Source: Deltaproteobacteria bacterium (GTDB lineage Bacteria > Desulfobacterota > Desulfobacteria > Desulfobacterales > C00003060). From it: a DNA stretch of 64,000 bases. Both the position numbers and the translations under genes were made by a program. Below are positions 7,289-60,267 of this stretch, in pieces. Each line of letters begins with the position of its first letter. Position 1 is the first letter of the stretch. The stretch spans positions 21,726 to 85,725 of the forward strand of contig QMMN01000002.1 of the NCBI GenBank assembly GCA_003647275.1, read 5' to 3'. The notes under the pieces were generated by a model, which had not been told where the DNA came from, searched no databases, and worked only from the letters and a program-made list of their open reading frames with translations.

Positions 7289-7304
7289 TGGCATAATTAT
7301 TGCC
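7289..7304 (+). promoter_or_regulatory. Sigma-54 (-24/-12) promoter candidate upstream of the 1416-aa GT gene
   Basis: TGGCATAATTATTGCC has GG at 7290-7291 and GC at 7302-7303, the canonical spacing of TGGCAC-N5-TTGC. It lies about 37 bp upstream of ATG 7341. Confidence 0.6.
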
Positions 7305-7340
7305 TTAGCATTCTGATATTCAATAGCACAAAAGGTTCCC

Positions 7341-10300
7341 ATGCAACAACAGTTTCAGCAAATAATAACTGCCATTCATAAGAAAAGATGGTCCTTTCAA
7401 CCTTTAACCAAAAAGGAGCTCGTATTTCTTTTGGCAGATTGTATCCTGGATAGACGGCTCTTTTCCTCGCCCAACTGGAACTGGCGCTATGGTGGGGTCA
7501 GATACATCCCGGATAAACAGACCGATCCAGAGCCTTCAAAAATACTGGTTTTGCAATGGCCTGGGACATTGGGCGATGTGGCCATGAGCGCTCCGGTATT
7601 CTCCATATTAAGGCAAAAATATCCCCATGCAGAAATCTCCTTTTTATCTGGCAAAACAGCTCAGTATATCTTTATGGGCAACCCTGACATAGATGTTTTG
7701 ATGGACAATCCTCTTGACCCTTATTTAGAGAAGGTTATGCATGGGCGTTCCATTGACCTTGAGGCCCTGTTGAGAGACATCTCCAGCCTTGTCGAATTAT
7801 TGACAAAAAACGAATATATTCTCCTGGTCAATCTTCAGGTTTTGCCCATGTCGGCTGTCCTGGCTAAGCTGTCTGGAGCCAAGCATACGATCGGAATGAC
7901 CCTGACGCCCGATGGGATGCCTGTTATCCACGGAAATATCTGGGCGGCTTATCTATTTGGGGTTTCCGCAAGCCTCATGAGGAGATATAACCTGCTCCAC
8001 CGTACAGAGATCTTTAACCTGATGATTGATGAACAGGGGAGGTTTATACCTGACTCCACGCTTTACATCAATCATGAAGCGGCGGAGAATGTTCAGGCAT
8101 TTTTTGACCACCACAGGATAAAAGATGAAGATCTTGTGGTGGGCATCAATCCCATGGCCGGGACCCCGATCAGAAAGTGGGGGCATTACGATCAGTTGGC
8201 CAAAAGAATCAAAGATGAATTAGGAGCCAAGGTGATCGTCTTCGGGGCAAAGGCTGAAGAAGATAAGGTTGATGAAATTGTCCGAAGAGCAGGAAAAGAT
8301 GTTATCAAAGCCACACAGTTCAATTTACAGGAGCTGATGGCGGCCATCTGCGGTTGTGATCTCTTCATCACCAATGATACCGGCCCCATGCATTTGGCAT
8401 GTTTGCTTAAACGCAAAGTCATAGCCCTTTTCGGGCCAACGTCCTTTCAAGAAGTAGGGCCTTGGCAGACCGAATTCCACGTACTTCAGTCATCACTGTG
8501 CCGGGATTGCTACAAACAGGTGTGTCCCTATCCTGAAAAATACTGCATGAACCAGATAAAGTTGGAAGATGTTTTCAAGGTCGTGGAGAAGGTCGTGAAA
8601 GGCGAGCTTGTTGCTGACATTGGGGACCATCTAATTTATCGGTCGTCAAAGGATATAGATCCCCGTGAGGCTGAGGATGCGTTTCTTGGGCAGATGATTT
8701 TTCAAGTGTTCAAAGTAAAAGGCCAAGGCATAGAAAGGGCTCCGGAAAGACCCCCAGAGGCTTTTAGGGAGACCGAGGGGCTCATGAAGGAATACAGCCA
8801 TGTCAAGAGCATGGTTAAAAAGGCAATCAACTACTTCAATATGCCGGCATCCGTCAATCTACAAAAGCTCCAGGAGATCCATCAGTCTATCGAGAGTGTT
8901 GATGAGATTTTAAAACCCATCGTGGTGATCAATGCGCTTGAATTTTTGGACAGAAGGATTCCCTTAAAAGAAAACCTTGATGCCTATCGCAACTTCTATG
9001 ACAGTCTTCTCAAGGACCTTGAGATCATGATGAGTTGCATCAGTGCGCAACCCAAAAAGGCGGTCAGATTTGGTCAAGACGAGAAAAGAGGACAAGCCAC
9101 ATTGCCAATGGACGACAATAAAGATTCCATTCCTATGATTGCGGAGATTCATCACCATCCTTTGATTAGTGTGCACATGATCGTGTGGAACCAAGAGAAG
9201 TATATAGGCGATGCTATTAGAAGCGTATTAGATCAAACCTACCAAAACTATGAGCTGATCATTGTTGATGACGGGTCAACCGACAACACAAGACAAATCA
9301 TCGAAACTTTCAGATCCGATAAGATCAAATACCACCTTAAAGAACATAGTGGCGTTGTAGCATCAAGGAACTATGCCTGTGATAAATGTGCTGGTGATTA
9401 CATCGCATTCTTGGATTCAGATGACATGTACGAACCGACTATGCTTGAAAAAGAAGTAGCTACCTTATTGAGAAACCCTGACTTGGATGTGGTGTATACC
9501 AATCTTAAGATTATCGATGAAAACGGAAATGAAACAGGAGCCGTATGGACATACAAAGACTATGAGTCCCAAGAATTGATACCAGCTCTCTTTCGTGCTG
9601 GTCAAAATATTACGCCCTTCCCCTCGATGATGGTGACAAAGAGAATCTCAGATAAAGCGGGAGGGTTTGATTCAGATTTTATAATTAACGAAGACAGCGT
9701 TTATACTGCGAAGTTGGCAAAACACGGGAAATTTAAGCATATCAATCTTCCCCTTTATAAGTATCGTCGCCATGGTTCTAACATCTCCCACCGAAGAAGC
9801 AGTTTAAAAGAGAGATCGGCAAGCACCGCTTTGATGCTTACAAAAATGCTGGAAATGTTTTCAAAGGAAGAAATTTTTCCGGAAATTCACTGGGCTGCCA
9901 TGCCCGATAAAGCAAAAGAGGCAGAATTCAACTTCCAGGTGGCCAGGGTATTCTGGGAACATTGCAAGGCCTATTTAACACATGAATGTCATCATAACCT
10001 ATTGGAAGGAGCGAATACATTTTTGGGCAAATGCCTGACAGTCGATCCGACCCACAGAGGCGGGATCAATCTCGCCAAGGAGTTAAATTCATTGTCTGAG
10101 ACAATTCAGGATAGAAGTGGAGAGGCTCCGACCAAAGTTGAGGAGAAGGTTGAATCCACAAAACACAAACTAAGGATTCTTTACCTTGCAGACTGCCGAA
10201 GTCAACACACAAAAAGGTATGTGTGCTTTTTCAAGGACCGGGGCCATGAGGTCCATATCTTTGACACTTCCGAGCATGGGGAGGGCCTGGAGGGTATTCA

Positions 10301-11591
10301 ATTACACTTTCCCCAAACACCACAAAACGATGAATCTAACGACAAGTATGAAGACCTGTTTATCCAGCGTGTATTTCAGCTTAACAGCCTTATTGACCGA
10401 ATAAAACCTGACATCCTCCATGGTCATTACCTGACAGAGCGCTGCTGGTGGGGAGCACTCACGGGCTTTCAGCCCTATGTGCTCACATGTTGGGGGTCCG
10501 ATATATTTTTGGATACGAAACTTAACGATTTTAATCGGAGGTTTAGTGAGTTTTGTCTAAAGACAAGTCCCTTGGTCACAGCCGATTCCATGGATTTACT
10601 TCGGGCGTCCACAAACTTAAGAGGGTTTTCAGATGGTGTGAAATATATACCCTTTGGGATTGATGTGGAGCTGTTTAGACCGGGTCTTGATACCTCTTCT
10701 TTGGCCAAAAAATTAGGAATCAATGGATTAAGGGTTGTCCTCAGCCCCCGGCAGTTTAGACCTCCGGCCAATATAGACGTCCTCATAAAAGCGATTCCAA
10801 AGATCATATCCAAAATACCAAACACCGTTTTTATTTTAAAGAACTATCTAGGCGAAGGGACAGCCTATGAGGAATATAAAAAGTATCTTCATGACTTGGT
10901 CAAAGAACTTAATGTTGAGAGTCACGTCACCTTTATGGACAATGTGAGTTTTGATGAAATGCCTATCCTTTATAATCTTGCAGATGTGATGGTCACCTTG
11001 CGGGACACGGATGGCTCTTCCTGTTCCATGTTAGAATCTATGTCTTGTAAGACGCCGGTGGTAGCCAGTGACATTGAAAGCATGCGGGAATGGATTATGG
11101 ATGGGGAAAACGGAAGGATCGTTAACCAAAACGACCCAGATTCCGTCGCAGATGCCATTTCAGAAATATTACTGGATGATGAGAAAAGACGGAAATTCCA
11201 AGAAGCAAGCCATGCCATAGTTTGCCAGAAAGCAGATTATCGAAAAAACTGGCTTGAGATGGAACAGCTCTACTATGAGGTTAGTCAAAAGAGCATAGAG
11301 GGGCCCCTTTCAAGTGGTTTCCCAGATTCAGATATATCGATAATCTATGGGAATCTCCGAACAGGATGGCATTCTATCGCATCCCATAACCTTGATAAAG
11401 GGAGGGAGGCTTTTGCCAAGATACTGGAGGCTTCCCAGCTCACTGCGCACAGCTACATGAGGGCCTTAATTGGATTGGCAAGGATAGCTTGGATCAAAGG
11501 AGATACAAAGGAAGCTAAAGCCTATTACATGGGGTGTTTAAAACTTTTACAAGGCTTTGAGCTTGATACACGCCTGGACATCAAAGGATAG
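7341..11591 (+). CDS. Giant multi-domain glycosyltransferase: GT9 (heptosyltransferase-like) + GT2 + GT4 + C-terminal TPR
   Basis: 1416 aa.
- GT9 part, about aa 65-400: [65 protein letters not shown].
- GT2 part, about aa 608-830: [52 protein letters not shown].
- GT4 part, about aa 942-1310: [66 protein letters not shown].
- TPR-like tail: [25 protein letters not shown]. Confidence 0.8.
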   Translation: [1416 protein letters not shown]

Positions 11592-14250: not shown

Positions 14251-14414
14251 TCATGGATTTCAAAAAAGTTTTCAGACAGATTTTTTCGCTCACTTAAGGT
14301 AAAAAATCGCGCCCTTTAGATAATGGTTAGAAGCATCCTGAGACAGAGGCCAGCCCGAAGAAAATAGTTGTAGACTTTATGACGGTTGGACGTCGGGGTT
14401 ACAGAAGGAATTCA

Positions 14415-16058
14415 ATGAGCAACCAGACTCAAAACAAGAAAGCTTTGCCAAAGATTTCTCTTTGCATGATCGTGAAGAATGAAGAAGAGATGCTTCCAAA
14501 GTGTCTCAGCAGTGTTAAGCATTTTGTGGATGAAATCATTGTGGTGGACACGGGTTCAACCGATAGGACCGTTGACATAGCCCAGAGTTATGGCGCAAAG
14601 GTCTATCACCATCCCTGGGAGGATGACTTCAGCAAGCACCGAAACCAGTCCATTTCTTATGCCGCCGGAGATTGGATCTTCATTATGGATGCGGATGAGG
14701 CGTTAAGGCCTGGAGATGGCGTAAAGATTCGAGAGGCGATTTCACACCCTGAAATCGATAGTGTGATGGTTGTCGTGGTCAATTTTTTTAATCAGGGAAC
14801 AAGTCAGAGTTTATTCAATCAGGTGCGTTTGTTCAAAAGAGATCCAGCCATCTTTTACTCGGGCATTGTTCACAATCAGCTGACCGGATACCAGTCAACC
14901 GTGGCCTGTTCCGCACAGATCTATCACTATGGTTATGATTTGGGCCAGGAGAGGATGCAGGCAAAGTTTGTTCGTACTTCCTCTCTGCTAAAGAAAAGAA
15001 TAAAACAGGACCCTGAAAATTTTCGCCATTATCATGACCTCGCTGTCAGCTATTCCATGAACAGAATGTTCGATGAAGCTGTCTCGGCAGGTATCAAGGC
15101 GATTGAATTAGCCAAAAACACTGAAAAAAAAGGCGGGGTTCTGATTCTGTGGACCTACTTTATTGTGGCATCCTCGTTGCTGATACAGAGAGATTTTCAG
15201 GGGGCAGAGAAGTATGCCCTTGAGGCACTGAAAAGATTTCCTAACCATCTTGATTCCCATTTTATTCTTGTAATGGCTTATCACGGATTGAAGGATTGGG
15301 CCCGTGTGAAAGAGGTTTCCGATGACTATTTCAATCTTCTCAAGGCCGTGCAGGAGCACCCCGGTCGCTTTGGCTATATTGTCAACAATACCACTGGAGA
15401 AGCTTGGCGCGTTCATCTGGTTTTAGGAGATTATTACCTGGAACAAGGGGATGTTCATCGGTGTAAGGAGGCATTTGATCATGCTTTTTCCGGTGCGCCA
15501 GTGGCATTTGAATGCCTGAAGATTATTGCCGACAGTTATAAAAACCGATCCTTATGGAAGGAGGCCGCCTATTATTACCAGCAGGCCTTCAAGGAAAAGG
15601 GTGACTTTCTGGGGGCCTTGTTGGGTCTGGCCTTGGCAAAGAATCGCCTTGGTAAAAAGAGAGAGGCCATCCAATATTATGAAAGGGCTTTGGAATTAGA
15701 ACCTGATTCCATTGAGGCCCTGGTCAACTTGGGCGACCTTTACTGTGAACAAGGGGAGGAAGATCTTGCTCAAAAATTCTATGAGAAGGCCCTGGGCATT
15801 GAATCCAAACTCGTCAATGTTTCACTTCGGCTGGCTAACTTTTCCGTGCAAAATGGTGAACTTGAGAAATGCGTGAGCTATTGTGAAAATATTCTTGAAA
15901 GCCTTGGTCTGTCGTTCAACCGCCCACTGGAAAGCGTATCGGATTTGGCTGATCTCTTTTTGATTATTGGCCATGAGTTGGATAAATCTGGGAGGGATGA
16001 CCTGTTTAGGGAGGCCATGAAGGTCGCGTTAAATCTAAAACCAGAACTAATAGCATAG
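14415..16058 (+). CDS. GT2 glycosyltransferase with C-terminal TPR domain (paralogue 1)
   Basis: GT2 motifs are ISLCMIVKNEEEMLPKCLSSVKHFVDEIIVVDTGSTDRTVDIA, HHPWEDDFSKHRNQ and DWIFIMDADE. The C-terminal half is TPR repeats. ATG 14415 (RBS GAAGGA) is preferred over the ORF-track start at 14379. Confidence 0.85.
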   Translation: MSNQTQNKKALPKISLCMIVKNEEEMLPKCLSSVKHFVDEIIVVDTGSTDRTVDIAQSYGAKVYHHPWEDDFSKHRNQSISYAAGDWIFIMDADEALRPGDGVKIREAISHPEIDSVMVVVVNFFNQGTSQSLFNQVRLFKRDPAIFYSGIVHNQLTGYQSTVACSAQIYHYGYDLGQERMQAKFVRTSSLLKKRIKQDPENFRHYHDLAVSYSMNRMFDEAVSAGIKAIELAKNTEKKGGVLILWTYFIVASSLLIQRDFQGAEKYALEALKRFPNHLDSHFILVMAYHGLKDWARVKEVSDDYFNLLKAVQEHPGRFGYIVNNTTGEAWRVHLVLGDYYLEQGDVHRCKEAFDHAFSGAPVAFECLKIIADSYKNRSLWKEAAYYYQQAFKEKGDFLGALLGLALAKNRLGKKREAIQYYERALELEPDSIEALVNLGDLYCEQGEEDLAQKFYEKALGIESKLVNVSLRLANFSVQNGELEKCVSYCENILESLGLSFNRPLESVSDLADLFLIIGHELDKSGRDDLFREAMKVALNLKPELIA

Positions 16059-35309: not shown

Positions 35310-35325
35310 TGGTATAGTGATTGCA
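35310..35325 (+). promoter_or_regulatory. Sigma-54 promoter candidate upstream of the PilZ-kinase pair
   Basis: TGGTATAGTGATTGCA has GG at 35311-35312 and GC at 35323-35324, with a perfect TTGCA -12 element. It lies about 85 bp upstream of ATG 35411. Confidence 0.6.
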
Positions 35326-35410: not shown

Positions 35411-36022
35411 ATGCAGGAATTTCCGTGCCAAGAGAGAAGAGAGTATGTCCGGACACCCTTGTGGGTTGATGTTGAGTTTACCATTTTGGATGAGGATGAA
35501 TATGAAGCTGTCAGGCGATCTGAACGGCCGCCCCCGCGGTTTATAAGCCAAGAAGCCTTGCCCCCTGGTGAAGAGGGGCAATATCAAGCGGATAGCGCAT
35601 TTCATTCAAATTTGATAGATTTTTTAATTCACATTGATCAAAAATTGGATCGCATATTAAAGCTGCTATCCAAAGTCCCCGGTCTGGAGGTTCCAGCCTT
35701 CAAGGATGACAAGTGTAAGGGGGACCTTTTTGTGGGAAAGGGTTTAGATATTAGCGGTGCCGGGATGAGTGTCATATGCGATAAGCCTATAGAGCCAGGG
35801 CGGATCCTTAGGGCGAGTTTCATGATCTCAAGATTTCCTATCATACCGTTAGTTGTATTTGGGGAGGTTGTACGTACGACACCTGTGCAAGATGATGGCA
35901 AGCAGCGCTATCAGGTTGTTATAAAGTTTATTGATCTGGATGAAGAGGATAAAGAAAAAATCATTGCTTACACATTTCAAGTCCAAAGAGATGCAATTAG
36001 AAAAAAGAAAAAGAGACAATGA
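35411..36022 (+). CDS. PilZ-domain protein (c-di-GMP receptor) with a long insertion between the two binding motifs
   Basis: RxxxR motif (QERREYVRTP) and D-x-S-x-x-G motif (LDISGAGMS). The C-terminus has a beta-barrel-like pattern. ATG 35411 is preferred over GTG 35399. Confidence 0.75.
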   Translation: MQEFPCQERREYVRTPLWVDVEFTILDEDEYEAVRRSERPPPRFISQEALPPGEEGQYQADSAFHSNLIDFLIHIDQKLDRILKLLSKVPGLEVPAFKDDKCKGDLFVGKGLDISGAGMSVICDKPIEPGRILRASFMISRFPIIPLVVFGEVVRTTPVQDDGKQRYQVVIKFIDLDEEDKEKIIAYTFQVQRDAIRKKKKRQ

Positions 36023-38504: not shown

Positions 38505-38823
38505 CCTTTTCCTGTATCTTCTGTCAAAAAAATGGCAGACCGGAAAAAATGTCCGTCTTAAAAGACTTGAGGTCTTGGCCTGAGCCATCTCCCAGCTTTG
38601 CTCGTTCATGTTTTTTTACGGTATTTTGTCCCAAATTATGCGATGAAACCTCCGTGGGTGAGAAGGGAATTTTCCTTAAAAGCCATGATCATATTGGCCA
38701 TCCAAAAGGGAATAATCGGCAAAAGAAAATGTAATATAAAGAGATAGTTAGATATGCCCTTGCCATTAAGGCATGATTCAATTTCATTGCCCTTTCTGAG
38801 TTTTTTGAATCATGTGCCTATTT

Positions 38824-38839
38824 TGGTGCAATTAATGCA
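38824..38839 (+). promoter_or_regulatory. Sigma-54 promoter candidate upstream of the HTH-PAS/cheW/cheA/cheR genes
   Basis: TGGTGCAATTAATGCA has GG at 38825-38826 and GC at 38837-38838, the correct spacing. It lies about 170 bp upstream of ATG 39008. Confidence 0.45.
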
Positions 38840-39007
38840 TGTAATGCATGAGGATCATTATGCGAGCGAGGGGGATAAACCTGAACAGCATACCATTGTT
38901 GTCATGACCCCGCTTGTGGCCCGTTGCGAGAAGGGGACTAAAGATTCAGGACCATTCTCCCGATAGATAGAAGCAACAGGGTATTTTGAATCTTCAGGAG
39001 CAGGGCA

Positions 39008-44415: not shown

Positions 44416-44871
44416 ATGAATATCAATGAAGTCAATGGGTATACCCACACGAAGCAGCCCTCCTCAGATCGAAAGGCGGGGGGTGACAAGAAATTTGACC
44501 GGATTTTGAATGATGCCATGGATAGCGTTGTCCATGAAGAACGTGCCGGAGACGACCTCTTCCCGGTAAAAGGGGTGGATGCCCCTGTCTTATGGGACCG
44601 CGGACACGTGGACCATTCCATTTTGTTGCAACACGCTTATCATATGCTGGATTTGCTGGAAGAGTACTCAGAGGCCTTAAATAACCCCCACATGACCTTA
44701 AAGCGGATTGAGCCGATTGTGGCCCGAATAGCGCAGGGGCTCAAAGGCTTGGACATGCAATCTATGGACAATGTCGCTCAAGATGATGAGCTTGCAGGCA
44801 TTATCAATGATATAGCCGTCACAGCCAGAGTGGAGGCCTTTAAGTTCCAGCGTGGCGACTATGTTGCATAA
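44416..44871 (+). CDS. Hypothetical protein (151 aa), no recognisable motif
   Basis: The ORF has a good RBS (AAGGGGG) and sits directly after cheY. The composition looks like a real protein, but I recognise no family. Confidence 0.5.
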   Translation: MNINEVNGYTHTKQPSSDRKAGGDKKFDRILNDAMDSVVHEERAGDDLFPVKGVDAPVLWDRGHVDHSILLQHAYHMLDLLEEYSEALNNPHMTLKRIEPIVARIAQGLKGLDMQSMDNVAQDDELAGIINDIAVTARVEAFKFQRGDYVA

Positions 44872-45429
44872 TCTCGAAGGAAAATTAATACACCTTTCCC
44901 CTTAAGGAACTTGTTGTCCAGAAAGGTGTGCTGGTAGCTCGAAAGCTGTCAGAGGGGATTTTTGGGTAGGTCACGGAGATTCCCCCGACAGGCTCGATAA
45001 AGGCGCAGAATTTTCCACACCGACTTATCCCCAAAAAAGATGTCCCTTCGCAGTTCAAAGATGAATGTGCACCTCTTTGGTCAACATCCCGTCAAGCATT
45101 AACCTGGTTGATTTAAGATCTTATTCGGTGCCCAATGAACTCGGGCAAAATCTATGAATCAATTGAGCCGAAATTCAGCGCACAAAAATTTTGCTTGCCT
45201 GTTGATAATCCACTTGAATTATGATAGATTAAATTCATAAACGGGTTAGGCTTTTAGCCTGCGACCATGGGTGAGCTGGACCGGGTTCGTTATTCGGAAA
45301 TCATGATCCGATGACACATTTGCAGTTCACGATTTAGCGCAACCCTGCGCAAAAAATGCACTCCGTGTCCAACTTCAGATTCACGGACCCAAAAGGGCCA
45401 AACGATCTCAACGTGTCAAAACGACGATT

Positions 45430-46827
45430 ATGATAGCACCGATGCAAAAGATTCTGATTGTGGATGATGATCCTGAGATTCTGGAGGTGATCGCAGATAT
45501 ATTAAGAGAGAAAGGCTATGATGTAGGCACGGCCGAAGACGGGGCAAAGGCCATTAAATGTATTGATGCTGAGTTTTACGATCTGGTTATTACCGATCTT
45601 AAAATGCCTGAGATTGATGGGATGATGCTCCTAAGACATGTTGTTGATCAATCGCCTGACACGGTGTGCATCATCTTAACCGGTTATGGCACCATTGAGA
45701 GCGCTGTTGAAGCCATCAAGACAGGGGCCTTTCATTATATTACCAAACCCATCAAGTCGGGTGAGATGTTGATGGTTGTGGAAACGGCTTTAAGATACAA
45801 ACATCTGGAGAGAGAGAATATCCTTTTAAGGCGGCAGCTTAGGAAAAAGTATCGATTTGAAAACTTTGTTGGTGACAGCAGGCCAATTCAAAAAGTGTTT
45901 GAACTCATAGAAAAGGTTGCGGATACAGACAGCACCGTACTGATCACAGGGGAAAGTGGTACGGGAAAGGAGTTAATAGCCAAGGCAATCCATTATAACA
46001 GCGACCGAAGAGACAAACCCATGGTTGTTATTAACTGTGGGGCAATCCCTGAGGAACTCTTGGAAAGCGAGCTGTTCGGGCATGAAAAAGGGGCCTTCAC
46101 TGGCGCGCACAAGACTCGCATTGGCCGTTTTGAACTCGCCAATGAAGGGACGATTTTCTTAGATGAAATCGGGGATATGAGTCCCAACCTCCAAGTGAAA
46201 CTGCTACGGGTCCTTCAGGAACAGAAGTTTGAGCGGGTTGGAAGTACAAGAACCATCAAGGTAGATATACGCATTATTGCTGCGACGAATCAGAATTTGG
46301 TTAATGCGGTCAACAAAAACACGTTCAGAGAAGACCTTTATTATCGACTCAATGTTATTCCAATAAAGGTTCCTCCTTTAAGGCACAGAAAATCGGATAT
46401 TCCTTTGCTTGTGGATTTTTTTGTCAAGAAATTTAACAAGGAAAAGCGAAAACATGTGAAGGAATTTACAGCAGAAGCGATGGATCTCTTGCTCCAGTAT
46501 GATTGGCCCGGAAATGTGCGCGAGCTTGAGAACCTGGTAGAAAGGGTTATCATCCTTGCAAATAGTGATCAGATCGGGTTGGATGACGTCCCTGATTCGA
46601 TTAAAGGCCGAGTTGAAAAGATAGGGTCTCCCGAACCCACCATCCCCAAGGGCGGGATTCCCTTTGATCATGCTGTCGAGGAATACGAGAAAAAGTTGAT
46701 TCTGCAAGCCCTGAATGAGACGAACTGGGTGAAAACAAAAGCGGCAAAACTGCTTAATATGAATCGAACAACCCTCATCGAAAAGATGAAGAAGAAAAAA
46801 CTATACAGACCCGCTGCTAGTTCATGA
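45430..46827 (+). CDS. Sigma-54-dependent response regulator (NtrC family; FlrC/FleR/AtoC-like)
   Basis: REC domain: ILIVDDDPEILEVI..DLVITDLKMPEIDG. AAA+ domain: GESGTGKELIA, ESELFGHEKGAFTGA (GAFTGA loop), IFLDEIG. Fis-type HTH: NRTTLIEKMKK. Confidence 0.9.
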   Translation: MIAPMQKILIVDDDPEILEVIADILREKGYDVGTAEDGAKAIKCIDAEFYDLVITDLKMPEIDGMMLLRHVVDQSPDTVCIILTGYGTIESAVEAIKTGAFHYITKPIKSGEMLMVVETALRYKHLERENILLRRQLRKKYRFENFVGDSRPIQKVFELIEKVADTDSTVLITGESGTGKELIAKAIHYNSDRRDKPMVVINCGAIPEELLESELFGHEKGAFTGAHKTRIGRFELANEGTIFLDEIGDMSPNLQVKLLRVLQEQKFERVGSTRTIKVDIRIIAATNQNLVNAVNKNTFREDLYYRLNVIPIKVPPLRHRKSDIPLLVDFFVKKFNKEKRKHVKEFTAEAMDLLLQYDWPGNVRELENLVERVIILANSDQIGLDDVPDSIKGRVEKIGSPEPTIPKGGIPFDHAVEEYEKKLILQALNETNWVKTKAAKLLNMNRTTLIEKMKKKKLYRPAASS

Positions 46828-47097
46828 GCCACGTCCTCAAAGCCCTCCATAGTGATTCATAGCATCATCATCGTCAAAAACCTGACAGGTCTCTTTTTAA
46901 TTAGTGCCTGTTGATAGTTGTCAGTTGTCCATTGCCAAAACCGTAAAACCAGTTGATTGAACTAGATCGCAAAAAGAGATTCAGGCGTTCTCATATCTCA
47001 CCTAACTATTTGAAAATATAGATACAACTGGCTACTGACAACGGACTGCTGACATTACCCCTCTTTCCCAACCTCCCAATATTCACAAGCATTTCCT

Positions 47098-47113
47098 TGG
47101 CACAGTAATTGCT
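47098..47113 (+). promoter_or_regulatory. Sigma-54 promoter candidate (best match in the window)
   Basis: TGGCACAGTAATTGCT has GG at 47099-47100 and GC at 47111-47112. It lies about 245 bp upstream of ATG 47357. A small hairpin with a T-run follows (ggcag-gtgtt-ctgcc-cctttttg). Confidence 0.65.
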
Positions 47114-47201
47114 GAATACCCTGTCAGGCAGGTGTTCTGCCCCTTTTTGATCTCTTACTCTGCACTTCTGCGACCTAAGCAGGAGACTGGCAGGCTTCTC
47201 C

Positions 47202-47358
47202 ACAGGCTGTTGCCCAAACAGCCGTGCACGTGGCATGAGGAAAGCAAACACCAAAAGAGGGCTGAAACTTGAAAATGCACAGCGAATGCTAACCCTGCAG
47301 CTTGCTGCGGGAAGCTTTAATTCTCGTGATTTGGGCAAATAGTCTGTCAAGATCTGAT
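47202..47358 (+). repeat. Dispersed intergenic repeat, family 2, copy B (with an internal insertion of about 45 nt)
   Basis: acaggctgttgcccaaacagccgtgcacgtggcatgaggaaagcaaacaccaaaagagggctgaaacttga...tcgtgatttgggcaaatagtctgtcaagatctgat. It carries TGGCATGAGGAAAGCA, with GG/GC at sigma-54 spacing. Its 3' end abuts the ATG of the TPR gene. Confidence 0.8.
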
Positions 47359-49876
47359 GTTCGTGAATTTTTCGTATAAAAAAGCCGTCCTCATAGCATG
47401 GTTAACCTTTGCCTTGAATCTTGTTGTGGTCCAGTACGCGGATTCAAAGGGCCGTGCCGTGATTCATCAAGTGTTGAGGGAATCTAAGGAGGATGGCTCC
47501 AGCATCATTATCAAACTAAGTGGTAATCCCCGCTACAAAGTGATCGGGATAGAGAAAAGGGAGATCTTGATTGCACTAAAAGATACTGAGCTTTCCAAGG
47601 GGCTTTCCAATAAGCAAATCGCAGGTGATGGGCTGATACAGCATATAGAGATCAACAAGAAGCCGCACAATGTGAGCTGCTTGCTTGTTAAGCTCCGAAA
47701 ACCATATATCAGGATTGATCACCAGATAGAGACCGGTAAGGGTAGACTGTGGATTCGAATCACGGATAAAACAGGCGTGTCCACAGGGACATCCACAACA
47801 GCTTCTTTTAACAAAGCTTCAAAACCAGGTGTATCAGATTCCCCTCTTTTACCTACGGAGATGGAAGCCCCTGTGGCCCTGAGTAGGTCGGGGGGTATCG
47901 ATGAACTGCTGAATCCAGGCACCAAGGATGCCACACCAGACACAGATCTTTTCCTGCGGGCTGTAGAGCACTTTCAGGAAGGCAGATGGGATGATGCGAT
48001 TCAAATTTTTAGAAAGATCATGAAAGCCTATCCTGGCAGTCCCCATTTAGAACGGGCCTATTTCCTGCTGGCAAAAAGTTATGATCATAAATTCAAAAAG
48101 AATATTTCAGATCATTTTATGGAGGTCATAATACACTACCGTGAGGCTGTAAGTAAATTTCCCAATTCTGTTTTTGTGCCTGATGCCATGGTATCCATGG
48201 GGAACTGTTACTTTAAAGCAAAAAATTACTATGAGGCCCTGGCCCATTACAACCTTGTCTACAAAAATTATAAGACCCATGCAGTGGCCCCCGAAGCCCT
48301 ATTTCAGCGAGGAAAGATCCTTGCCTTAACCAAAAAACCACAAGAGGCAATTAAGAGCTTTGAGCAGCTTGAATCACGCTATCCTGAAACGCCATTTGCC
48401 AGAACCGCAAAGGTCGAAAGGGCCAAGGCGCTCTTTGACATGAACGCCTTTAAACGTTCCCTGAGGCTGCTTGATGAAGTCATAACCGTAGAACCGGACA
48501 AAGTTTATGAAGATCCAGATATTCTTCTCTATTTTGGTTATAACTACTATGAGCTTGGAAGATTAAAAGAAGCAAGGGATCTCTTGTGTAAAACCTTGAA
48601 CTGTTATCCCGATATAGAATCAAGCCATTTGGTCTTGACAAGGATTGCCGACACCTACCGAGAGGAGGGGATGGAAGCTAAGGCATTAAAATTGTACAAC
48701 ATGGTATTAAGGAGATACCCTGATAGCGAAGGGGGGCTGATTAGCCTGCTTCGCCTTTCTGTAAATAGCGAAGGGGTTGCATCTGAAAAGCAGCTTCTCG
48801 CGGGGCCAGTTGAAGAAATAACCTACAATAGGCCTACGGATGAGACCTACAAAGAGATCATGAAGTCGCATGGAGACCATCCCCTATCCCAGCTTGCCGG
48901 GCTGAGGCTTGCACACGAGCAACTGAAACACAAAGATTATGAAGGGAGTATCCAAACCCTTAGAGGTATCCTGTCTAAACATCCTGATACCCCTTTGTCG
49001 GAGGACATCAAGTCTGCCCTTCGAACATCAATGGAAGCCATTTTTAAAAGGGAGCAGCAAGCAGGAAATTATGAGAATATCCTAAATTACTATGAACAGA
49101 TGAAGGATCTATTGAGCATTGAAGATGCGCCGAATCTCCTTTTGATACTCGGTGATACTTACAGAAGGCTTCATCTGTACGATCGTGCTATCTCCATGTT
49201 TGAAAAAGCCAAAAGTTCGTACACAGATCAAGATCAACCTGGCACGCTGCTGTTCGGTTTGGGGGAATCTTTTTATAAGGTAAAAAGGTTTGAAGAAGCC
49301 CAACAGCCGCTTGAGGTCTTTGTTGCAAGATATCCTGAGGACAAACGGTCAGCCCGGGCCTATTTCTTCATAGGGGATATGATGCTTAGGCAAAAAAAGT
49401 ATGACAAAGCAATGGCGGCCTTTAATCTGGCCAGGCAGAAAACCACTGAGAAAGATATTAAAATCCGCATACTTATGGGCATGGCCGAAGCATTAAGCGG
49501 TGGGGGAGATTATGATAAGGCATCCAGTGTGTTGAACAAAGCCATCGCGTTGCTGAGTCAGAACAAGCGTGATTCGTTGATAGACATCTACGATGCCTAT
49601 CAGAGGCTGGGTGAGACGTATCTTAAACTTGGAGACAATGAACAGGCTGCATCGGCGTTTGAGATGGCCCTTAAGGTTAGCCCCAAGGGCCGGAACGACC
49701 ACCGCCTGCAATTCAGGCTTGCGGAATGTTATCAAAAGCTCCAGGCAAGAGATAAGGCGGAGCGAATATTAAATCAGATTATCGTTGCTGGTGACCCATT
49801 CTGGAGCAGGATGGCCGAGGCAAAGATCAATGAGATTCGCATAGAAAAAACCGTTGAAGGGCTGGGTCATACTTGA
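47357..49876 (+). CDS. Secreted TPR-repeat protein with an AMIN-like N-terminal beta domain (tentative)
   Basis: Signal-peptide-like N-terminus: KKAVLIAWLTFALNLVVVQYADS. AMIN-like segment: SSIIIKLSGNPRYKVIGIEKREILIALKDTEL. More than 10 TPR or YbgF-like repeats follow. No obvious RBS, so the start is uncertain. Confidence 0.7.
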   Translation: MFVNFSYKKAVLIAWLTFALNLVVVQYADSKGRAVIHQVLRESKEDGSSIIIKLSGNPRYKVIGIEKREILIALKDTELSKGLSNKQIAGDGLIQHIEINKKPHNVSCLLVKLRKPYIRIDHQIETGKGRLWIRITDKTGVSTGTSTTASFNKASKPGVSDSPLLPTEMEAPVALSRSGGIDELLNPGTKDATPDTDLFLRAVEHFQEGRWDDAIQIFRKIMKAYPGSPHLERAYFLLAKSYDHKFKKNISDHFMEVIIHYREAVSKFPNSVFVPDAMVSMGNCYFKAKNYYEALAHYNLVYKNYKTHAVAPEALFQRGKILALTKKPQEAIKSFEQLESRYPETPFARTAKVERAKALFDMNAFKRSLRLLDEVITVEPDKVYEDPDILLYFGYNYYELGRLKEARDLLCKTLNCYPDIESSHLVLTRIADTYREEGMEAKALKLYNMVLRRYPDSEGGLISLLRLSVNSEGVASEKQLLAGPVEEITYNRPTDETYKEIMKSHGDHPLSQLAGLRLAHEQLKHKDYEGSIQTLRGILSKHPDTPLSEDIKSALRTSMEAIFKREQQAGNYENILNYYEQMKDLLSIEDAPNLLLILGDTYRRLHLYDRAISMFEKAKSSYTDQDQPGTLLFGLGESFYKVKRFEEAQQPLEVFVARYPEDKRSARAYFFIGDMMLRQKKYDKAMAAFNLARQKTTEKDIKIRILMGMAEALSGGGDYDKASSVLNKAIALLSQNKRDSLIDIYDAYQRLGETYLKLGDNEQAASAFEMALKVSPKGRNDHRLQFRLAECYQKLQARDKAERILNQIIVAGDPFWSRMAEAKINEIRIEKTVEGLGHT

Positions 49877-49913: not shown

Positions 49914-51260
49914 ATGCATAAAAGTCACATTTTACTCATAGAAGATATGGATCAAGAAAGGGCTGCCTTGTCCGAGACCTTGAAGGGCTATGGATACAGG
50001 GTCACGGCTGTCAGCAATGGTGTCAACGCCCTGGAAAAACTCAAGGGTCAGGATTACGACCTTGTCATATCCGACCTTAAAATGCCGGAACTAGATGGTA
50101 TAGAATTATTAAGGAGGGTTAATGAAGAAGAAATCGCTGTCCCTGTCATCATCATTTCAGGATACGGAACGGTCGAATCTGCTGTTGAGGCCATGAAACT
50201 GGGCGCCTTTGACTTTATTTTGAAGCCTTTTGCACCAAAAGTCATGAACTCTGTTGTCGAGAGGGCGATTCGGTGTCGTGTATCTTCATCTCCTGGGACA
50301 GATTCAGGTCCAATGGAGCCTTTAATTATTACCAGGAATCGTCAAATGCTTGATCTGTTGGACTTGGCAAAGACTGTAGCCGACAGCAAGGCAGCCGTAT
50401 TGATTCAGGGAGAGAGCGGTACAGGAAAAGAACTCTTTGCTCGTTTCATTCACAACCAGAGTTCGAGGCGTAACAAAACTTTTGTGGCGGTCAACTGCGC
50501 AGCGCTTCCAGAAGGACTTTTAGAAAGCGAACTCTTTGGACACGAAAAGGGGGCCTTTACTGGGGCAGTTTCAAGAAAACTCGGCAAGTTTGAATTGGCC
50601 CGGGGTAGCACCATACTCTTAGACGAAATAAGCGAAATGAACATACAACTCCAAGCCAAGCTGCTTCGGGTATTGCAGGAGTCTGAGGTTGACAGGGTGG
50701 GTGGCCAGCATCCTATTCCTATTGACGTCCGCGTGATTGGGACGACGAACCAGGATATCGAGTCGGCCATAGAGGCAAAAAAGTTCCGGGCAGACCTTTA
50801 TTATCGCTTGAACGTCATACCGATCAGGCTACCACCCCTGCGGGACAGAAAGGATGATATACCCCTGTTAGCGGATTATTTTATTAAGAAATACAACAAG
50901 ATAGACGGTCGTGATGTCAAAGGGTTGACAAAAGATGCAGCCCAGACGCTCATGCGCATGCACTGGCCCGGCAACGTCAGGGAACTGGAAAATGTGATGG
51001 AGCGGGCCGTGCTTCTTTGTGGTGGGGATCTGATCGACAAAGATGCGCTTTTTGCAGGTGAGAGGCCCAAAGCCGTTGGGATGCCCGAGTCATCATCCAT
51101 ACCGGCCGGTTCCCTCAAGGAGATGGAAAAAAGGGTGATTTTGGAAACTCTGGATCAGACGAATGGAAATCGAACTCACGCTGCAGAAATTCTTGGCATT
51201 AGTGTGCGGACACTAAGGAACAAGTTGAACGAGTACCGAGAAAAGATGGAAATGCTTTGA
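49914..51260 (+). CDS. Sigma-54-dependent response regulator (NtrC family), second paralogue
   Basis: MHKSHILLIEDMDQERA..DLVISDLKMPELDG, GESGTGKELFA, ESELFGHEKGAFTGA, ILLDEIS, HTH SVRTLRNKLNEY. ATG 49914 is preferred; the ORF-track start at 49854 overlaps the upstream gene. Confidence 0.9.
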   Translation: MHKSHILLIEDMDQERAALSETLKGYGYRVTAVSNGVNALEKLKGQDYDLVISDLKMPELDGIELLRRVNEEEIAVPVIIISGYGTVESAVEAMKLGAFDFILKPFAPKVMNSVVERAIRCRVSSSPGTDSGPMEPLIITRNRQMLDLLDLAKTVADSKAAVLIQGESGTGKELFARFIHNQSSRRNKTFVAVNCAALPEGLLESELFGHEKGAFTGAVSRKLGKFELARGSTILLDEISEMNIQLQAKLLRVLQESEVDRVGGQHPIPIDVRVIGTTNQDIESAIEAKKFRADLYYRLNVIPIRLPPLRDRKDDIPLLADYFIKKYNKIDGRDVKGLTKDAAQTLMRMHWPGNVRELENVMERAVLLCGGDLIDKDALFAGERPKAVGMPESSSIPAGSLKEMEKRVILETLDQTNGNRTHAAEILGISVRTLRNKLNEYREKMEML

Positions 51261-51263: not shown

Positions 51264-51279
51264 AGGCATACAAATTGCT
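51264..51279 (+). promoter_or_regulatory. Sigma-54 promoter candidate for the flgB operon
   Basis: AGGCATACAAATTGCT has GG at 51265-51266 and GC at 51277-51278 with a perfect TTGCT -12 element. The first base is A instead of T. It lies 4 nt after the activator stop and about 330 bp upstream of flgB. Confidence 0.5.
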
Positions 51280-51606
51280 AAGGATAATAATCACGAATGC
51301 CTGAAAATAAGAAAGCGTGAAAGGGACAAAGATTGATTGGGGAAAAAATGACAAATTCCAAAGCCCAAATGACAAACCAAGCTCAAGATTCAAATAGCAG
51401 AAAGTCTACAATGTTGAAGAACTTCCCGGCTTGGAGGAAGTTTTGGCATTTACCATTTGGATTTTTCCATTTGAACTTGTTTGATATCGTGTTCTTGAGA
51501 TTCGTTTATCAGGGGCTTGGTTCCTGCTTATCCTGGTTAAGCCGACCCATGATGCTGTCAGGATTATCGTTATCATCGGGATAAAATAGACAGGTAAGGT
51601 ACAATC

Positions 51607-58172: not shown

Positions 58173-58187
58173 GCAGTACGCAGTTTA
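58153..58187 (+). repeat. Tandem heptamer array (CAGTARG x5) spanning the fliJ stop codon
   Basis: cagtaag cagtagg cagtagg cagtacg cagttta. The fliJ TAG at 58170-58172 lies inside the third unit. Confidence 0.85.
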
Positions 58188-58215
58188 CATGCCACCGTAA
58201 TCTGGCAGAAAAAAC

Positions 58216-58836
58216 ATGAACTTTAGAACGAAACATGTAAAACCTTATCTACTGGCAACCCTGTTGTGCTTTTTGATTTTAAAACTTGTGCTTGGGGCTA
58301 TGCTCCTGTACATCAAAGGACCTGTGTTGTCCGTGCCTGGGTTAGATAGCAGGCCAGCTTTGGCTGAAGATGCCGGTCGAGGCACGTCGAAGGGACCTTC
58401 GGACCAGGATCCCCTTCTTCCATCACGGCCGTCTTTGAATTCCCAAAACGTGAGCGCGAGCTTAAAAATTCTTGAACGCAGGCGTGCTGAGATAGAAATG
58501 GAAAGACGGCAACTTGAAAGTGAGCGTAAACAATTAACAGCCCTCAAGGAGGAAATTGAGGCAAAGCTTGTCCAGCTATCAAAAATTCAGGATAGCATCC
58601 AGAGCAAGCTTGAAACACAAGAGACGATTCGTAATGATAAGATCAAGCATCTCATCAAGATATATACGACCATGGCTCCCAAAAAGGCCGCTGCCCTTAT
58701 AGAAAAACTTGACATGGAGGTCATTATAGAATTGTTTTCAAAGATGAAAGGGGAAAATGTCGGGAAGATACTTCCCTATGTGTCGGCTGAAAAGGCGGCC
58801 AGGATCAGTGAACGCCTTGCCAATTTCAATGATTAA
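58216..58836 (+). CDS. MotE/YlxF-like flagellar protein (MgtE_N-type domain)
   Basis: N-terminal transmembrane segment and a coiled coil. C-terminus: MAPKKAAALIEKLDMEVIIELFSKMKGENVGKILPYVSAEKAARISERL. It occupies the same position (after fliJ, before fliK) as ylxF in the B. subtilis fla/che operon. Confidence 0.7.
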   Translation: MNFRTKHVKPYLLATLLCFLILKLVLGAMLLYIKGPVLSVPGLDSRPALAEDAGRGTSKGPSDQDPLLPSRPSLNSQNVSASLKILERRRAEIEMERRQLESERKQLTALKEEIEAKLVQLSKIQDSIQSKLETQETIRNDKIKHLIKIYTTMAPKKAAALIEKLDMEVIIELFSKMKGENVGKILPYVSAEKAARISERLANFND

Positions 58837-58848
58837 GGTGCGTAGCAC

Positions 58849-58905
58849 AAAGGGCATAGGGCAAATAGAGTTTGAGTCTTGCGCATGCTCTATGCTATGC
58901 CCTTT
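58849..58905. terminator. Long hairpin between convergent genes (possible bidirectional terminator)
   Basis: aaagggcatag (58849-58859) pairs with ctatgcccttt (58895-58905). An inner pair is atagag (58865-58870) with ctctat (58888-58893). There is no clear U-run. Confidence 0.4.
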
Positions 58906-59398
58906 ACGGTTGTGTTACCTTCTCAATATTTATATTATAGGTGCTCTGCGATTTAGCGGGGAGGCTGGTTTCTGGCTCGGGGGCCAGACGTGTACCATAT
59001 ACAATGCTTTCATGTCCATGGTCGTCGACTATCCTTTTCACCGGTATGCTATTGACCATTTGCATGATCACCTCATCTGAAAAGCCCGCCTTTTTTAACA
59101 TCTCTATTTGTTCAATGGACAGCTCAGCTTTCTTGGGGTTCTTATAACGATCTGCCAAAATGACCGATTTCAGCATCGCGTCATTTGCCCCGGCACTTTT
59201 GAGTTTTATCAGAGACTCACCGGTTATGGAACAGGTTTGTTCCGCGATCAACATTTGAATCACACTATCACTGATCTTTGCGCTTTTCATCCTTCTGATG
59301 TCATCAGGGCCAACCAATGAGTTCATGGCCAAAACCAGCCCGGAAAAGATAAGCGTTATACCTACCACGCAGAGCCAGAGGATAATGATTCTTTTCAT
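58904..59398 (-). CDS. Small secreted or membrane-anchored protein with three copies of a repeat of about 18 aa (unknown family)
   Basis: MKRIIILWLCVVGITLIFSGLVLA is signal- or anchor-like. Repeats are IRRMKSAKISDSVIQMLI, LIKLKSAGANDAMLKSVI and IEMLKKAGFSDEVIMQMV. The RBS GAGGGGG precedes ATG 59398, which is preferred over the ORF-track start at 59425. Confidence 0.6.
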   Translation of the reverse strand: MKRIIILWLCVVGITLIFSGLVLAMNSLVGPDDIRRMKSAKISDSVIQMLIAEQTCSITGESLIKLKSAGANDAMLKSVILADRYKNPKKAELSIEQIEMLKKAGFSDEVIMQMVNSIPVKRIVDDHGHESIVYGTRLAPEPETSLPAKSQSTYNINIEKVTQP

Positions 59399-60251
59399 GA
59401 TCTCTTCCCCCTCGTAAGTTATCAAAACGCCTTGTTGCTTTTCCTCCTGTTGTGAGGTCGGCTCGAAGAGCCAGCCTAAGCAGGATTATCATTCCATCCC
59501 TTCCAGTCTGGGATGAGTATATTGCGCAGGCGTTCGGTTGGTAGCGTTTCGTTTGGGCACTTTATGAAACAGAGCAATATTTGTGCCTAGGATTATATAC
59601 GCATTATGGCAACACACAATCAGAGGATGGTTGGTTTCTAGTTCTTGCCAAAGGCGGACGGCTGTTGGTTGAACACTTGCTAACAAGGGTAGGCACTAAA
59701 CATAAATATCCACCAGGGTTCCTTTTTCAGAAGCAATGTCCCGGGGTAATCGTCGGGACCCCTGATTTTCGGGATTTTTCTCTGAGGTAGTTTCGTATCG
59801 GTCCCCAGGGATGGCAGTCCTTTGATAAGGCTTGGCAAGATATGTGCTGTTCTTTGTAAAAGGAACAATCGCTAGATTTTTGGTGGGATTCACTTCCATA
59901 GCTGGGTACCCCCCCTCTTTAAAGGTGTAAGGCTTTGGGCGCAAGGCTCACGGTTGTCTGTTTTTCTCTTACGGCGTTTGCCGTGCGCACAATGTCCAGC
60001 GCTTTTGAGATCTCTTAAGAGATGAGTACTGCTCCCGCATGATTTTAGTGCATTATTTTTACTTACATTATAAATGTATTTATAGAAAGTCAAGCCTTTT
60101 TGTCTCAGGTCGCATGGATATGGGAAATATTTTCCTCCTCAGCCTTAATCATGGAAAAACTTTCTATTTAAGGAGGGCCCCAAATGCTTCTTGCTGGGCA
60201 TCATTTTTACAACCTGATGTATTCATTGAAAATAAATAAAATCACCTTTTC

Positions 60252-60267
60252 TGGCATGCTCATTGCT
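60252..60267 (+). promoter_or_regulatory. Sigma-54 promoter candidate for fliK-flgD-flgE
   Basis: TGGCATGCTCATTGCT has GG at 60253-60254 and GC at 60265-60266. It lies about 50 bp upstream of ATG 60318. Confidence 0.65.

Follow-up and report, generated by a model that had tools for sequence, protein, structure and literature searches.

Which promoters and activators control a flagellar gene cluster whose host has never been cultured? We addressed this question in a 64,000-nt stretch (hereafter the window) of contig QMMN01000002.1 (positions 21,726 to 85,725 of the forward strand; assembly GCA_003647275.1), a 129.7-kb metagenome contig from an organism that is represented by metagenome assemblies alone. 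The window covers a region of flagellar, flagellin-glycosylation and chemotaxis genes in the genome of an uncultured member of the Desulfobacterales. RNA polymerase containing sigma-54 (RpoN) uses −24/−12 promoters and depends on an enhancer-bound activator that is driven by ATP. In Vibrio, Pseudomonas, Campylobacter/Helicobacter and Caulobacter, it is established that sigma-54 controls early and middle flagellar genes and sigma-28 (FliA) controls flagellin. A preliminary description of the window had listed seven candidate sigma-54 promoters and had proposed a two-tier RpoN-to-FliA hierarchy in which the glycosylation and chemotaxis genes belong to the RpoN tier. The best explanation of the results presented here, to which we give a probability of about 80%, is that most structural flagellar operons at this locus are read from sigma-54 promoters in a two-activator cascade that is followed by sigma-28. 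This reading is based on predicted sigma-54 promoters before fliD, a PilZ–kinase gene pair, an operon encoding a TPR protein and an activator, the flgB operon, a small minus-strand gene, fliK-flgD-flgE and a motA–flhB operon, together with two conserved enhancer motifs (Table 1).

Strong sigma-54 matches exceed chance

All seven 15-mers of the preliminary description were found on the plus strand at the positions given for them. The GG-N10-GC pattern that defines them is not enriched in the window (435 sites versus 453 ± 21 expected). By contrast, the fuller consensus TGGCAY-N5-TTGC occurs four times without a mismatch, versus 0.47 expected, a number that none of 100 shuffles reached, and 19 times with at most one mismatch, versus 9.6 expected (1 of 100 shuffles reached 19). 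At up to two mismatches, the count is again at the chance level (128 versus 117 expected); thus, only the best consensus matches are informative. Full or one-mismatch matches are present at 7289, 35310, 47098, 51264 and 60252, as had been claimed, and also at 27755 and, on the minus strand, at 59574, whereas the sites at 38824 (three mismatches) and 43299 (two mismatches) keep the dinucleotides and their spacing only.

A position-weight-matrix scan with random controls, the check proposed in the preliminary description, led to the same view. Across 127,966 scored positions, with noise rates taken from simulated sequences, seven sites scored at least 14 when 1.7 were expected. Each of the five top-ranking sites is intergenic and faces a gene. 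At scores of at least 13, seven sites fall in 7.1 kb of intergenic sequence and two in 56.9 kb of coding sequence, a density ratio of 28 (Fisher p = 6e-6). The concern that matches of equal quality might be as frequent inside genes does not therefore apply to the strong sites. At scores of at least 10–11, the level of 43299 and 38824, between 10 and 17 sites per window are expected by chance. Together with the comparative evidence below, these results leave four of the seven sites solid (35310, 47098, 51264 and 60252), one plausible (7289), one ambiguous (38824) and one that is probably noise (43299). The list was also incomplete, as good sites at 27755 and, on the minus strand, at 59574 had been overlooked.

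Predicted promoters are conserved before the same genes

The comparison set comprised 34 loci from a genome scan with FliF, in which the gene order is mostly the same, and we took the best sigma-54 score in each orthologous spacer. Extra loci (loci carry L numbers) were added via FliD homologues, and spacers between maf and glycosyltransferase genes via relatives found with the GT9 part of a giant glycosyltransferase gene; L046 is the source contig, followed 10 kb past the window. FliF of the window is 63–77% identical to proteins of Desulfobacterales metagenome-assembled genomes, and its identity is only about 50% among genomes that share sigma-54 sites at orthologous positions. In coding sequence of the comparison loci, scores of at least 12.7 occur at only 0.014 per kb per strand, so the conservation of the promoters is far beyond chance.

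The sites at 35310, 47098, 51264 and 60252 are very likely to be real sigma-54 promoters, judging from their sequence and conservation. All four are among the nine best matrix matches, are intergenic, lie on the strand of the gene that they precede and have counterparts before the same gene in 5–25 related Desulfobacterales genomes, which supports the assignment made in the preliminary description. The site before the TPR gene and activator 2 is kept in 16 of 16 loci, with scores of 16.2–18.8. The flgB site recurs in 25 of 26 loci as RAGGCAYNCAAATTGCTA (scores of 12.7–15.3), always directly behind the stop codon of activator 2. Before fliK, a site is present in five of the six annotated loci and in further loci in which a diverged fliK escaped tblastn. 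The PilZ site has an unusual TGGTAY form that is shared by six of seven loci and likewise by L042; L040 and L041 carry the canonical TGGCAT. In alignments of the closest relatives, the −24/−12 block is the sole conserved island in otherwise unalignable spacers, including the spacer that contains 47098. We considered that the flgB element might not be a promoter, because conservation extends to its internal spacer and a stop codon adjoins it, but dropped this idea: every orthologous promoter here keeps its own spacer, which points to ordinary purifying selection on orthologous sites.

The two overlooked sites and a third beyond the window extend this set. The predicted fliD promoter has counterparts in four of five relatives (L040, L041, L042 and L045) and is absent from L039, where flaG precedes fliD. 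Orthologues of the minus-strand gene (58904–59398), the product of which resembles a signal-peptide protein, have a sigma-54 site in two of two loci (L003 and L005; scores of 13.1–13.3). A strong match, ATGGCACAAAGGTTGCTC, lies about 905 nt past the end of the window (L046, 12903–12920), 47 nt upstream of an operon that includes motA, two OmpA/MotB-like genes, fliL, fliM, fliN, fliO, fliP, fliQ, fliR and flhB; the same site follows flgE in nine relatives. No sigma-54 site was found in the comparison loci in the spacers before activator 1, orf151, fliE, fliF, fliI, cheX or cheY.

Two leaders within this set have features of their own. The flgB leader (51281–51606) measures 328 nt, similar to the roughly 330 nt of L022, whereas most relatives have a leader of about 30–110 nt; here it holds an 83-aa open reading frame (ORF; 51333–51584) with no family match. 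A hairpin with a T-run (GGCAGGTGTTCTGCC CCTTTTTGAT; 47127–47150) lies within a few nucleotides of the predicted transcript start of the TPR–activator 2 operon, and similar stretches occur near the TPR promoter in L004 and L005. The element may act in attenuation or may stabilise the 5′ end of the transcript.

Two enhancer motifs accompany the promoters

Counting k-mers over orthologous upstream regions identified two palindromic motifs. The first, class A, is YGTCA-N6-TGACR; 616 kb of loci contain 68 copies of its core, GTCA-N6-TGAC, compared with about 9 in shuffled sequence, and nearly all copies are 110–350 nt upstream of a sigma-54 site. Before the TPR promoter, it is present at about 19 loci at distances of 110–300 nt (224 nt in the window). 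Before the motA promoter, the distance is about 140 nt in the loci and 231 nt in the source contig. In three relatives, a class A site also precedes PilZ, and in L043 and L044 such sites neighbour strong sigma-54 matches within the glycosylation islands.

The class A site upstream of flgB is embedded in the coding sequence of activator 2, in every genome, about 340 nt from the flgB promoter (347 nt in the window). It spans codons for Val-Lys-Gly-Leu-Thr. All 23 of 23 genes use GTC for the valine, a codon that accounts for no more than 28% of their valine codons overall, and the Leu/Met codon is NTG in all 23; the third positions of the Lys, Gly and Thr codons vary freely. This codon constraint indicates selection on the DNA and not on the protein alone.

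The second motif, class B, is GGMAA-N3-TTTCC and is found before fliK and just downstream of the fliD promoter. In 10 of 12 loci, the fliK promoter has a copy at about −130, and five of these loci have a second copy at about −98; the window has both, at −128 and −98. At fliD, class B lies at +52 of the promoter in the window (27806) and in L042. Enhancers were thus found for 47098, 51264, 60252 and 27755. As read from their sequences, class A matches the FlrA/FleQ-type motif and class B resembles FlbD-type sites.

Two activators and a proposed cascade

The preliminary description had noted two activators with GAFTGA loops, at 45430 and 49914. Both indeed show GAFTGA, a Walker A motif and ESELFGH, and the ATG at 49914 is a plausible start. 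Activator 1 itself lacks a sigma-54 promoter: upstream of it, scores reach no more than 5.0 in the window and 6.7 in 15 relatives. A sigma-70-like candidate at 45202–45230 is weak and, as sigma-70 totals are at the chance level, is a lead only. Activator 2, by contrast, lies in an operon with both a predicted promoter and an enhancer. The targets form two sets with different enhancers: class A at TPR–activator 2, flgB and motA, and at PilZ and glycosyltransferase genes in relatives; class B at fliK and fliD.

These data are consistent with a cascade of four steps. Activator 1, without a sigma-54 promoter, would stand at the top. It would bind YGTCA-N6-TGACR and turn on the TPR–activator 2, basal-body/export and motor/export operons, and probably also the PilZ–kinase pair and some glycosyltransferase genes. 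Activator 2, which is FlbD-like, would in turn bind GGMAA-N3-TTTCC and turn on the hook operon and fliD. Finally, sigma-28 would read fliC and the HTH-PAS-cheW-cheA-cheR operon. Given the conserved sigma-54 promoters, the two GAFTGA activators and the conserved sigma-28 promoter of fliC (see below), the RpoN-to-FliA hierarchy of the preliminary description is a sound reading.

Several points weigh against this reading. The pairing of activators with enhancers and the order of the tiers are what we infer by analogy with other systems. No rpoN gene was found in the window or the following 10 kb, and no fliA gene in the window; we take sigma-54 to be present in the genome because two GAFTGA activators are encoded. 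The receiver of activator 1 is canonical and apparently phospho-accepting (Response_reg match of 1.6e-30; DD...D...T...K pattern by eye), unlike FleQ, FlrA or DVU2894, so that activator 1 is not a top activator with a FleQ-type or absent N-terminal domain that lacks a phospho-acceptor. Class B fits the FlbD motif only loosely, with TTCC replacing TGCC, and a search of the window around 7289, 35310 and 59574 revealed neither enhancer class. As related loci are not independent samples, a count such as 25 of 26 stands for fewer independent observations than it suggests. The sigma-54 matrix only approximates the published consensus, but simple counts of consensus matches give a concordant result.

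The receiver of activator 2 is also canonical by eye. The gene co-transcribed with activator 2 is not a kinase gene, such as flrB or fleS, but that of an 839-aa TPR protein (47357–49876), and the sole short kinase gene in the window (36019–36870) lies behind PilZ. Upstream of activator 1, a small ORF, orf151 (44416–44871), is conserved in most related loci. Four of 11 orf151 orthologues weakly match models of the Caulobacter assembly regulator FliX (best E = 0.001), and no other family recurs; a solved-structure search with the family matched only designed coiled coils and was uninformative.

fliC and fliD have different predicted promoters

The preliminary description had assigned fliC a perfect sigma-28 promoter and fliD a weaker sigma-28-like one. 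The first is confirmed at 26228–26254, and an equivalent element is present in six of six genomes. The second stands in part. The sigma-28-like stretch before fliD is conserved in five genomes, but it contains a class B palindrome, GGCAAACTTTTCC (27806–27818), that begins 52 nt past the start of the predicted sigma-54 site, and it sits about 25 nt downstream of that better, conserved site. Because of this overlap and the better site upstream, we place fliD in the sigma-54 tier, possibly with an additional sigma-28 input. In Pseudomonas aeruginosa, fliD is likewise sigma-54 dependent.

The fliC 5′ leader has a hairpin, GGCAAGGATGCC (26343–26354), with AGGA in the loop, in six of six genomes, and a second GGA in the Shine–Dalgarno region. 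It resembles the CsrA sites on flagellin mRNAs and would, if functional, mean control by FliW and CsrA; neither a csrA nor a fliW gene was found in the window. In L042, the fliD promoter sequence TTGGCAGGTATTTTGCTG occurs twice (5156–5173 and 9854–9871), flanking a gene with SBBP/PKD repeats and an AbiEii/AbiEi pair that lie between fliC and fliD, which looks like an insertion that duplicated the promoter. The 1178-aa FliD (27891–31427) has homologues of similar length, 51–56% identical over about three-quarters of the length, in anammox Planctomycetota (Scalindua and Brocadiaceae) as well as in Desulfobacterales; for a filament cap, such a likeness across phyla is unusual.

Chemotaxis genes and sigma-28

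The placement of the chemotaxis genes in the RpoN tier was not borne out. A sigma-28-type element (two mismatches, N16 spacing) precedes the HTH-PAS-cheW-cheA-cheR operon in five of five genomes (the window, L002, L042, L004 and L005), 42–70 nt before the start codon, which suggests that the operon belongs at least partly, and perhaps wholly, to the sigma-28 tier. We lean slightly towards the view that chemotaxis lies outside the sigma-54 tier altogether: the operon would be read from this element at 38939–38966, cheX-cheY would be co-transcribed or have another promoter, 43299 would be a chance match and 38824 would be the operator of a DNA-binding regulator or, at most, a weak secondary promoter. 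Consistent with this view, the 43299 match belongs to the two-mismatch class, which is at chance frequency, and has no counterpart in L013 or L033, the two relatives with cheX; it is most likely a chance match and not a promoter. Its score alone cannot dismiss it, however, as only about one intergenic site of at least 11 is expected by chance.

The 38824 element is harder to place. Three of its positions differ from the consensus, among them −23 and −22, where C and A are normally conserved, and it contains TGCA-N5-TGCA, an imperfect palindrome read from its sequence. L042 keeps the sigma-28 element but lacks the 38824 element. Yet a near-identical sequence, TTGGTGCGATTARTGCA, is present in L004 and L005, such that the exact GG-N10-GC spacing is kept in three genomes. 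A GTCA-N6-TGGC site lies upstream at 38523, with a similar TGTCAAAAAAATGGC upstream of HTH-PAS in L042 and L004, and GGAAA..TTTCC-like palindromes lie ahead of 38824 in the window and in L005. A tandem sigma-54/sigma-28-like layout is also seen before fliD, and two sigma-54-dependent chemotaxis operons have been reported in Desulfovibrio (PMC4641369). We regard 38824 as a conserved element of uncertain function, an ambiguous putative promoter.

A possible sigma-54 promoter of the glycosylation island

The site at 7289 is a plausible but not secure candidate for the sigma-54 promoter of the giant glycosyltransferase gene. It is one of the exact consensus matches, ranks fourth and lies on the strand of the gene. 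The divergent spacer between maf and the glycosyltransferase gene has a sigma-54-like site scoring at least 11 in four of four genomes (the window, L043, L044 and L045), with about 0.02 expected per spacer. At other junctions of their glycosylation islands, relatives have strong sigma-54 sites accompanied by class A enhancers (L043, 16157 and 16376 with an enhancer at 16312; L044, 16767 with an enhancer at 16889). A near-identical element in L044, however, has the opposite orientation and faces maf, and the L045 site overlaps the called start codon. In the window, no enhancer of either class was found within 450 nt of 7289.

An alternative is that the gene is read from a sigma-70-like promoter, TTTACT-16-TATAAT, at 7216–7243, 45 nt upstream of 7289, and that GGCA-N7-TGCC at 7290–7304 is a palindromic operator or a fortuitous match. 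We consider this doubtful. The sigma-70-like element matches at 10 of 12 positions and is among the two best such matches in 19.5 kb, but the class as a whole is not above chance and provides a lead only. The 7289 element itself reads GG-N10-GC on both strands and has C, not A/T, at −11, and strict orthologue footprinting is impossible because the fused gene has no full-length homologue. Against this alternative stand the quality and position of the 7289 match, the four conserved spacers and the enhancer-bearing sites of the relatives' islands. If 7289 is a sigma-54 promoter, its direct link is to the first island gene only. The island has gaps of 245–252 nt without sigma-54 sites, and no plus-strand terminator-like sites were found in its intergenic gaps. 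The assignment of glycosylation to the RpoN tier is thus supported by the match, the spacers and the islands of relatives, and weakened by the orientation in one relative, the lack of an enhancer and the sigma-70-like alternative.

The product of this gene is a 1416-aa GT9-GT2-GT4-TPR fusion. Of 5.8 billion clustered proteins, none is homologous to it over the full length, and the best others cover about 40% at 39–43% identity. A metagenome scan with it returned only four distant matches, all to the GT4 domain, and the gene caller of the source places its start 30 codons downstream.

The weakest alternative, that all of the sites match a short, degenerate pattern by chance and that none is a sigma-54 promoter, can draw on the chance frequency of GG-N10-GC and of the two-mismatch class and on one exact match within a gene (15166), but it is extremely improbable and already contradicted by the comparative data, namely sites kept at orthologous positions and enhancers kept at fixed distances, as well as by the enrichment of the exact and one-mismatch classes, the strong intergenic and gene-strand bias and the presence of two GAFTGA activators in the cluster.

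Gene content and other features of the window

Pfam scans upheld the gene identities given in the preliminary description. The 5′ part of the window holds the flagellin glycosylation island, with a Maf-like gene on the minus strand, the 1416-aa GT9-GT2-GT4 fusion and many GT2-TPR genes. These are followed by fliC, the fliD gene, fliS and flaG, and then by genes for a response regulator and a receiver–HD-GYP protein. The middle part comprises PilZ and the short histidine kinase, cheB, HTH-PAS-cheW-cheA-cheR and cheX-cheY, and the regulators follow in the order orf151, activator 1, the TPR protein and activator 2. The 3′ part holds flgB, flgC, fliE, fliF, fliG, fliH, fliI and fliJ, an MgtE_N-like gene, the small minus-strand gene and fliK-flgD-flgE.

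The gene after fliJ (58216–58836) has an MgtE_N-like region and weakly matches FlbB, the collar protein of the spirochaete periplasmic flagellum (E = 8e-9, below the cut-off); it is kept at the same position in most related loci. The exact match at 15166 has a score at which about three sites per window are expected by chance and may be either a chance match or an internal promoter. Three intergenic sigma-54-like matches (59833–59847, plus strand; 58180–58194, minus strand; 47231–47245, plus strand) score 11.6–13.0 and have no obvious target gene; about one such intergenic match is expected by chance, as derived from the simulated rates. An Rfam scan of the whole window gave zero matches.

Table 1 Predicted regulatory elements and activator genes of the window, with rank and score in the sigma-54 matrix scan
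Position	Strand	Sequence	Feature	Rank	Score	Remarks
7289..7303	+	TGGCATAATTATTGC	Candidate sigma-54 promoter, giant glycosyltransferase gene (7341–11591)	4		Exact consensus; 37 nt upstream of the gene
15166..15180	+	TGGCATCCTCGTTGC	Sigma-54 consensus match inside GT2-TPR gene 14379–16058		13.4	Exact consensus
26228..26254	+	TAAA-N15-GCCGATAA	Sigma-28-type promoter, fliC			0 mismatches
27755..27769	+	TGGCAGGTATTTTGC	Predicted sigma-54 promoter, fliD	3	16.4	Behind the fliC terminator
27796..27823	+	TCAAGTTTCGGGCAAACTTTTCCGATAG	Sigma-28-like stretch before fliD
35310..35324	+	TGGTATAGTGATTGC	Predicted sigma-54 promoter, PilZ–histidine kinase pair	7
38523..38536		GTCAAAAAAATGGC	One-mismatch class A copy (GTCA-N6-TGGC)			300 nt upstream of 38824
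38824..38838	+	TGGTGCAATTAATGC	Non-canonical GG-N10-GC element before HTH-PAS-cheW-cheA-cheR	24	10.4
38939..38966	+	TAAAGATTCAGGACCATTCTCCCGATAG	Sigma-28-type promoter, HTH-PAS			42 nt before the start codon
43299..43313	+	TGGCACGAAGCCGGC	Weak sigma-54-like match before cheX	14	11.8
45430..46827	+		Activator 1			Receiver, AAA+ (GAFTGA), Fis-type HTH
46873..46886		GTCAAAAACCTGAC	Class A enhancer, TPR–activator 2
47098..47112	+	TGGCACAGTAATTGC	Predicted sigma-54 promoter, TPR–activator 2 operon	1
49914..51260	+		Activator 2			Receiver, AAA+ (GAFTGA), HTH; best family match FlbD, 454 bits, below the cut-off of 750
50916..50929		GTCAAAGGGTTGAC	Class A enhancer within activator 2 coding sequence
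51264..51278	+	AGGCATACAAATTGC	Predicted sigma-54 promoter, flgB-flgC-fliE-fliF-fliG-fliH-fliI-fliJ	9		3 nt past the activator 2 stop
59574..59588	-	AGGCACAAATATTGC	Predicted sigma-54 promoter, minus-strand gene	5
60123..60165		GGAAATATTTTCC (60123), GGAAAAACTTTCT (60153)	Two class B palindromes, fliK
60252..60266	+	TGGCATGCTCATTGC	Predicted sigma-54 promoter, fliK-flgD-flgE	2

Comparison with known flagellar systems

A close parallel is Desulfovibrio vulgaris Hildenborough, for which the prediction of Kazakov et al. assigns yGTCA-N6-TGACr to the FlrA/FleQ-like DVU2894 (PMC4641369). That organism likewise has two flagellar sigma-54 activators and −24/−12 promoters at many flagellar and some chemotaxis operons. 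Its FlbD-like regulator DVU1063 has sites that often lie 40–70 bp downstream of promoters (PMC4641369), as the palindrome does at fliD here. The differences are that the host here belongs to the Desulfobacterales; that activator 1 has a full receiver, whereas DVU2894 has no N-terminal domain; that class B is GGMAA-N3-TTTCC, whereas Rajeev et al. gave GGCA-N4-TGCC for DVU1063 and CCCGGCA-N5-TGCCGGG for FlbD (PMC3333781); and that the activator genes here flank a conserved TPR gene, with an enhancer inside the activator 2 coding sequence.

The FlrA/FlrBC system of V. cholerae and the FleQ/FleSR system of P. aeruginosa share the overall layout, in which a top activator without a sigma-54 promoter acts on a sigma-54 operon with a second activator, and late genes, including flagellin, depend on sigma-28. 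The half-sites and spacing of class A are shared with the V. cholerae FlrA site, GTCA-N6-TGGC (PMC4641369), and with the FleQ box proposed for P. aeruginosa, GTCaNTAAAtTGAC, as quoted in PMC6120874. Unlike in these four-tier systems, a TPR gene and not a histidine kinase gene adjoins activator 2 here, activator 1 looks phosphorylatable and the PilZ–kinase pair has a predicted sigma-54 promoter of its own.

Caulobacter crescentus, in which FlbD and FliX govern flagellar genes of classes III and IV, offers a parallel for the second activator. Activator 2 scores best against the FlbD model, a hook operon is a predicted target, the palindrome is GGCA-N5-TGCC-like and the small gene before activator 1 weakly matches FliX in some orthologues. 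The FlbD score, however, falls below the cut-off, and the receiver of activator 2 looks canonical, whereas those of FlbD and DVU1063 are atypical. In addition, the FliX-like gene adjoins activator 1 and not activator 2 here, and there is no CtrA tier.

In Geobacter sulfurreducens, flgB and other flagellar operons are RpoN dependent, with the consensus TTGGCACGGTTTTTGCT, and RpoN acts above sigma-28 (PMC2725144). The RpoN-type promoters before flgB and other flagellar operons resemble those predicted here, whereas no glycosylation island is involved in that regulon; activators and enhancers were not compared there. For glycosylation, a reported precedent is the epsilon-proteobacterium Helicobacter pylori, in which RpoN drives flaB-jhp0106 and with it a putative flagellin glycosyltransferase gene (PMC5368276). 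That gene rides on the flaB promoter, whereas flagellin here is predicted to be sigma-28 dependent and a separate sigma-54 promoter would serve the glycosyltransferase gene. The main text of the FlmG paper makes no mention of RpoN or FlbD.

Discussion

Overall, the control scheme of this locus is one already familiar from other flagellar systems, and the general picture of flagellar gene control is unchanged. What is distinctive here is the canonical receiver on the top activator, the TPR gene in the position that a kinase gene occupies in gamma-proteobacteria, the enhancer embedded in coding sequence and the predicted sigma-54 promoters of the PilZ–kinase pair and, probably, of glycosyltransferase genes. 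A bolder proposal is that the cascade of this clade is wired in undescribed ways, with a selected, coding-embedded basal-body enhancer, a TPR-coupled FlbD-like activator, and glycosyltransferase and PilZ–kinase genes as direct targets of the FlrA-type activator; taken as a whole, we hold this proposal only tentatively and think it rather unlikely. If the large, periplasmic TPR protein does take the place of a kinase, this would hint that activator 2 responds to an assembly or envelope cue.

For uncultured relatives of sulfate reducers, these results provide a regulatory map that separates predicted sigma-54 from sigma-28 operons, gives a likely order of tiers and supplies two enhancer motifs for use in searches of further genomes. 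The GTCA-N6-TGAC half-site pattern, proposed in Pseudomonas and predicted in Desulfovibrio, would thereby extend to the Desulfobacterales, which points to an old and stable activator–DNA code.

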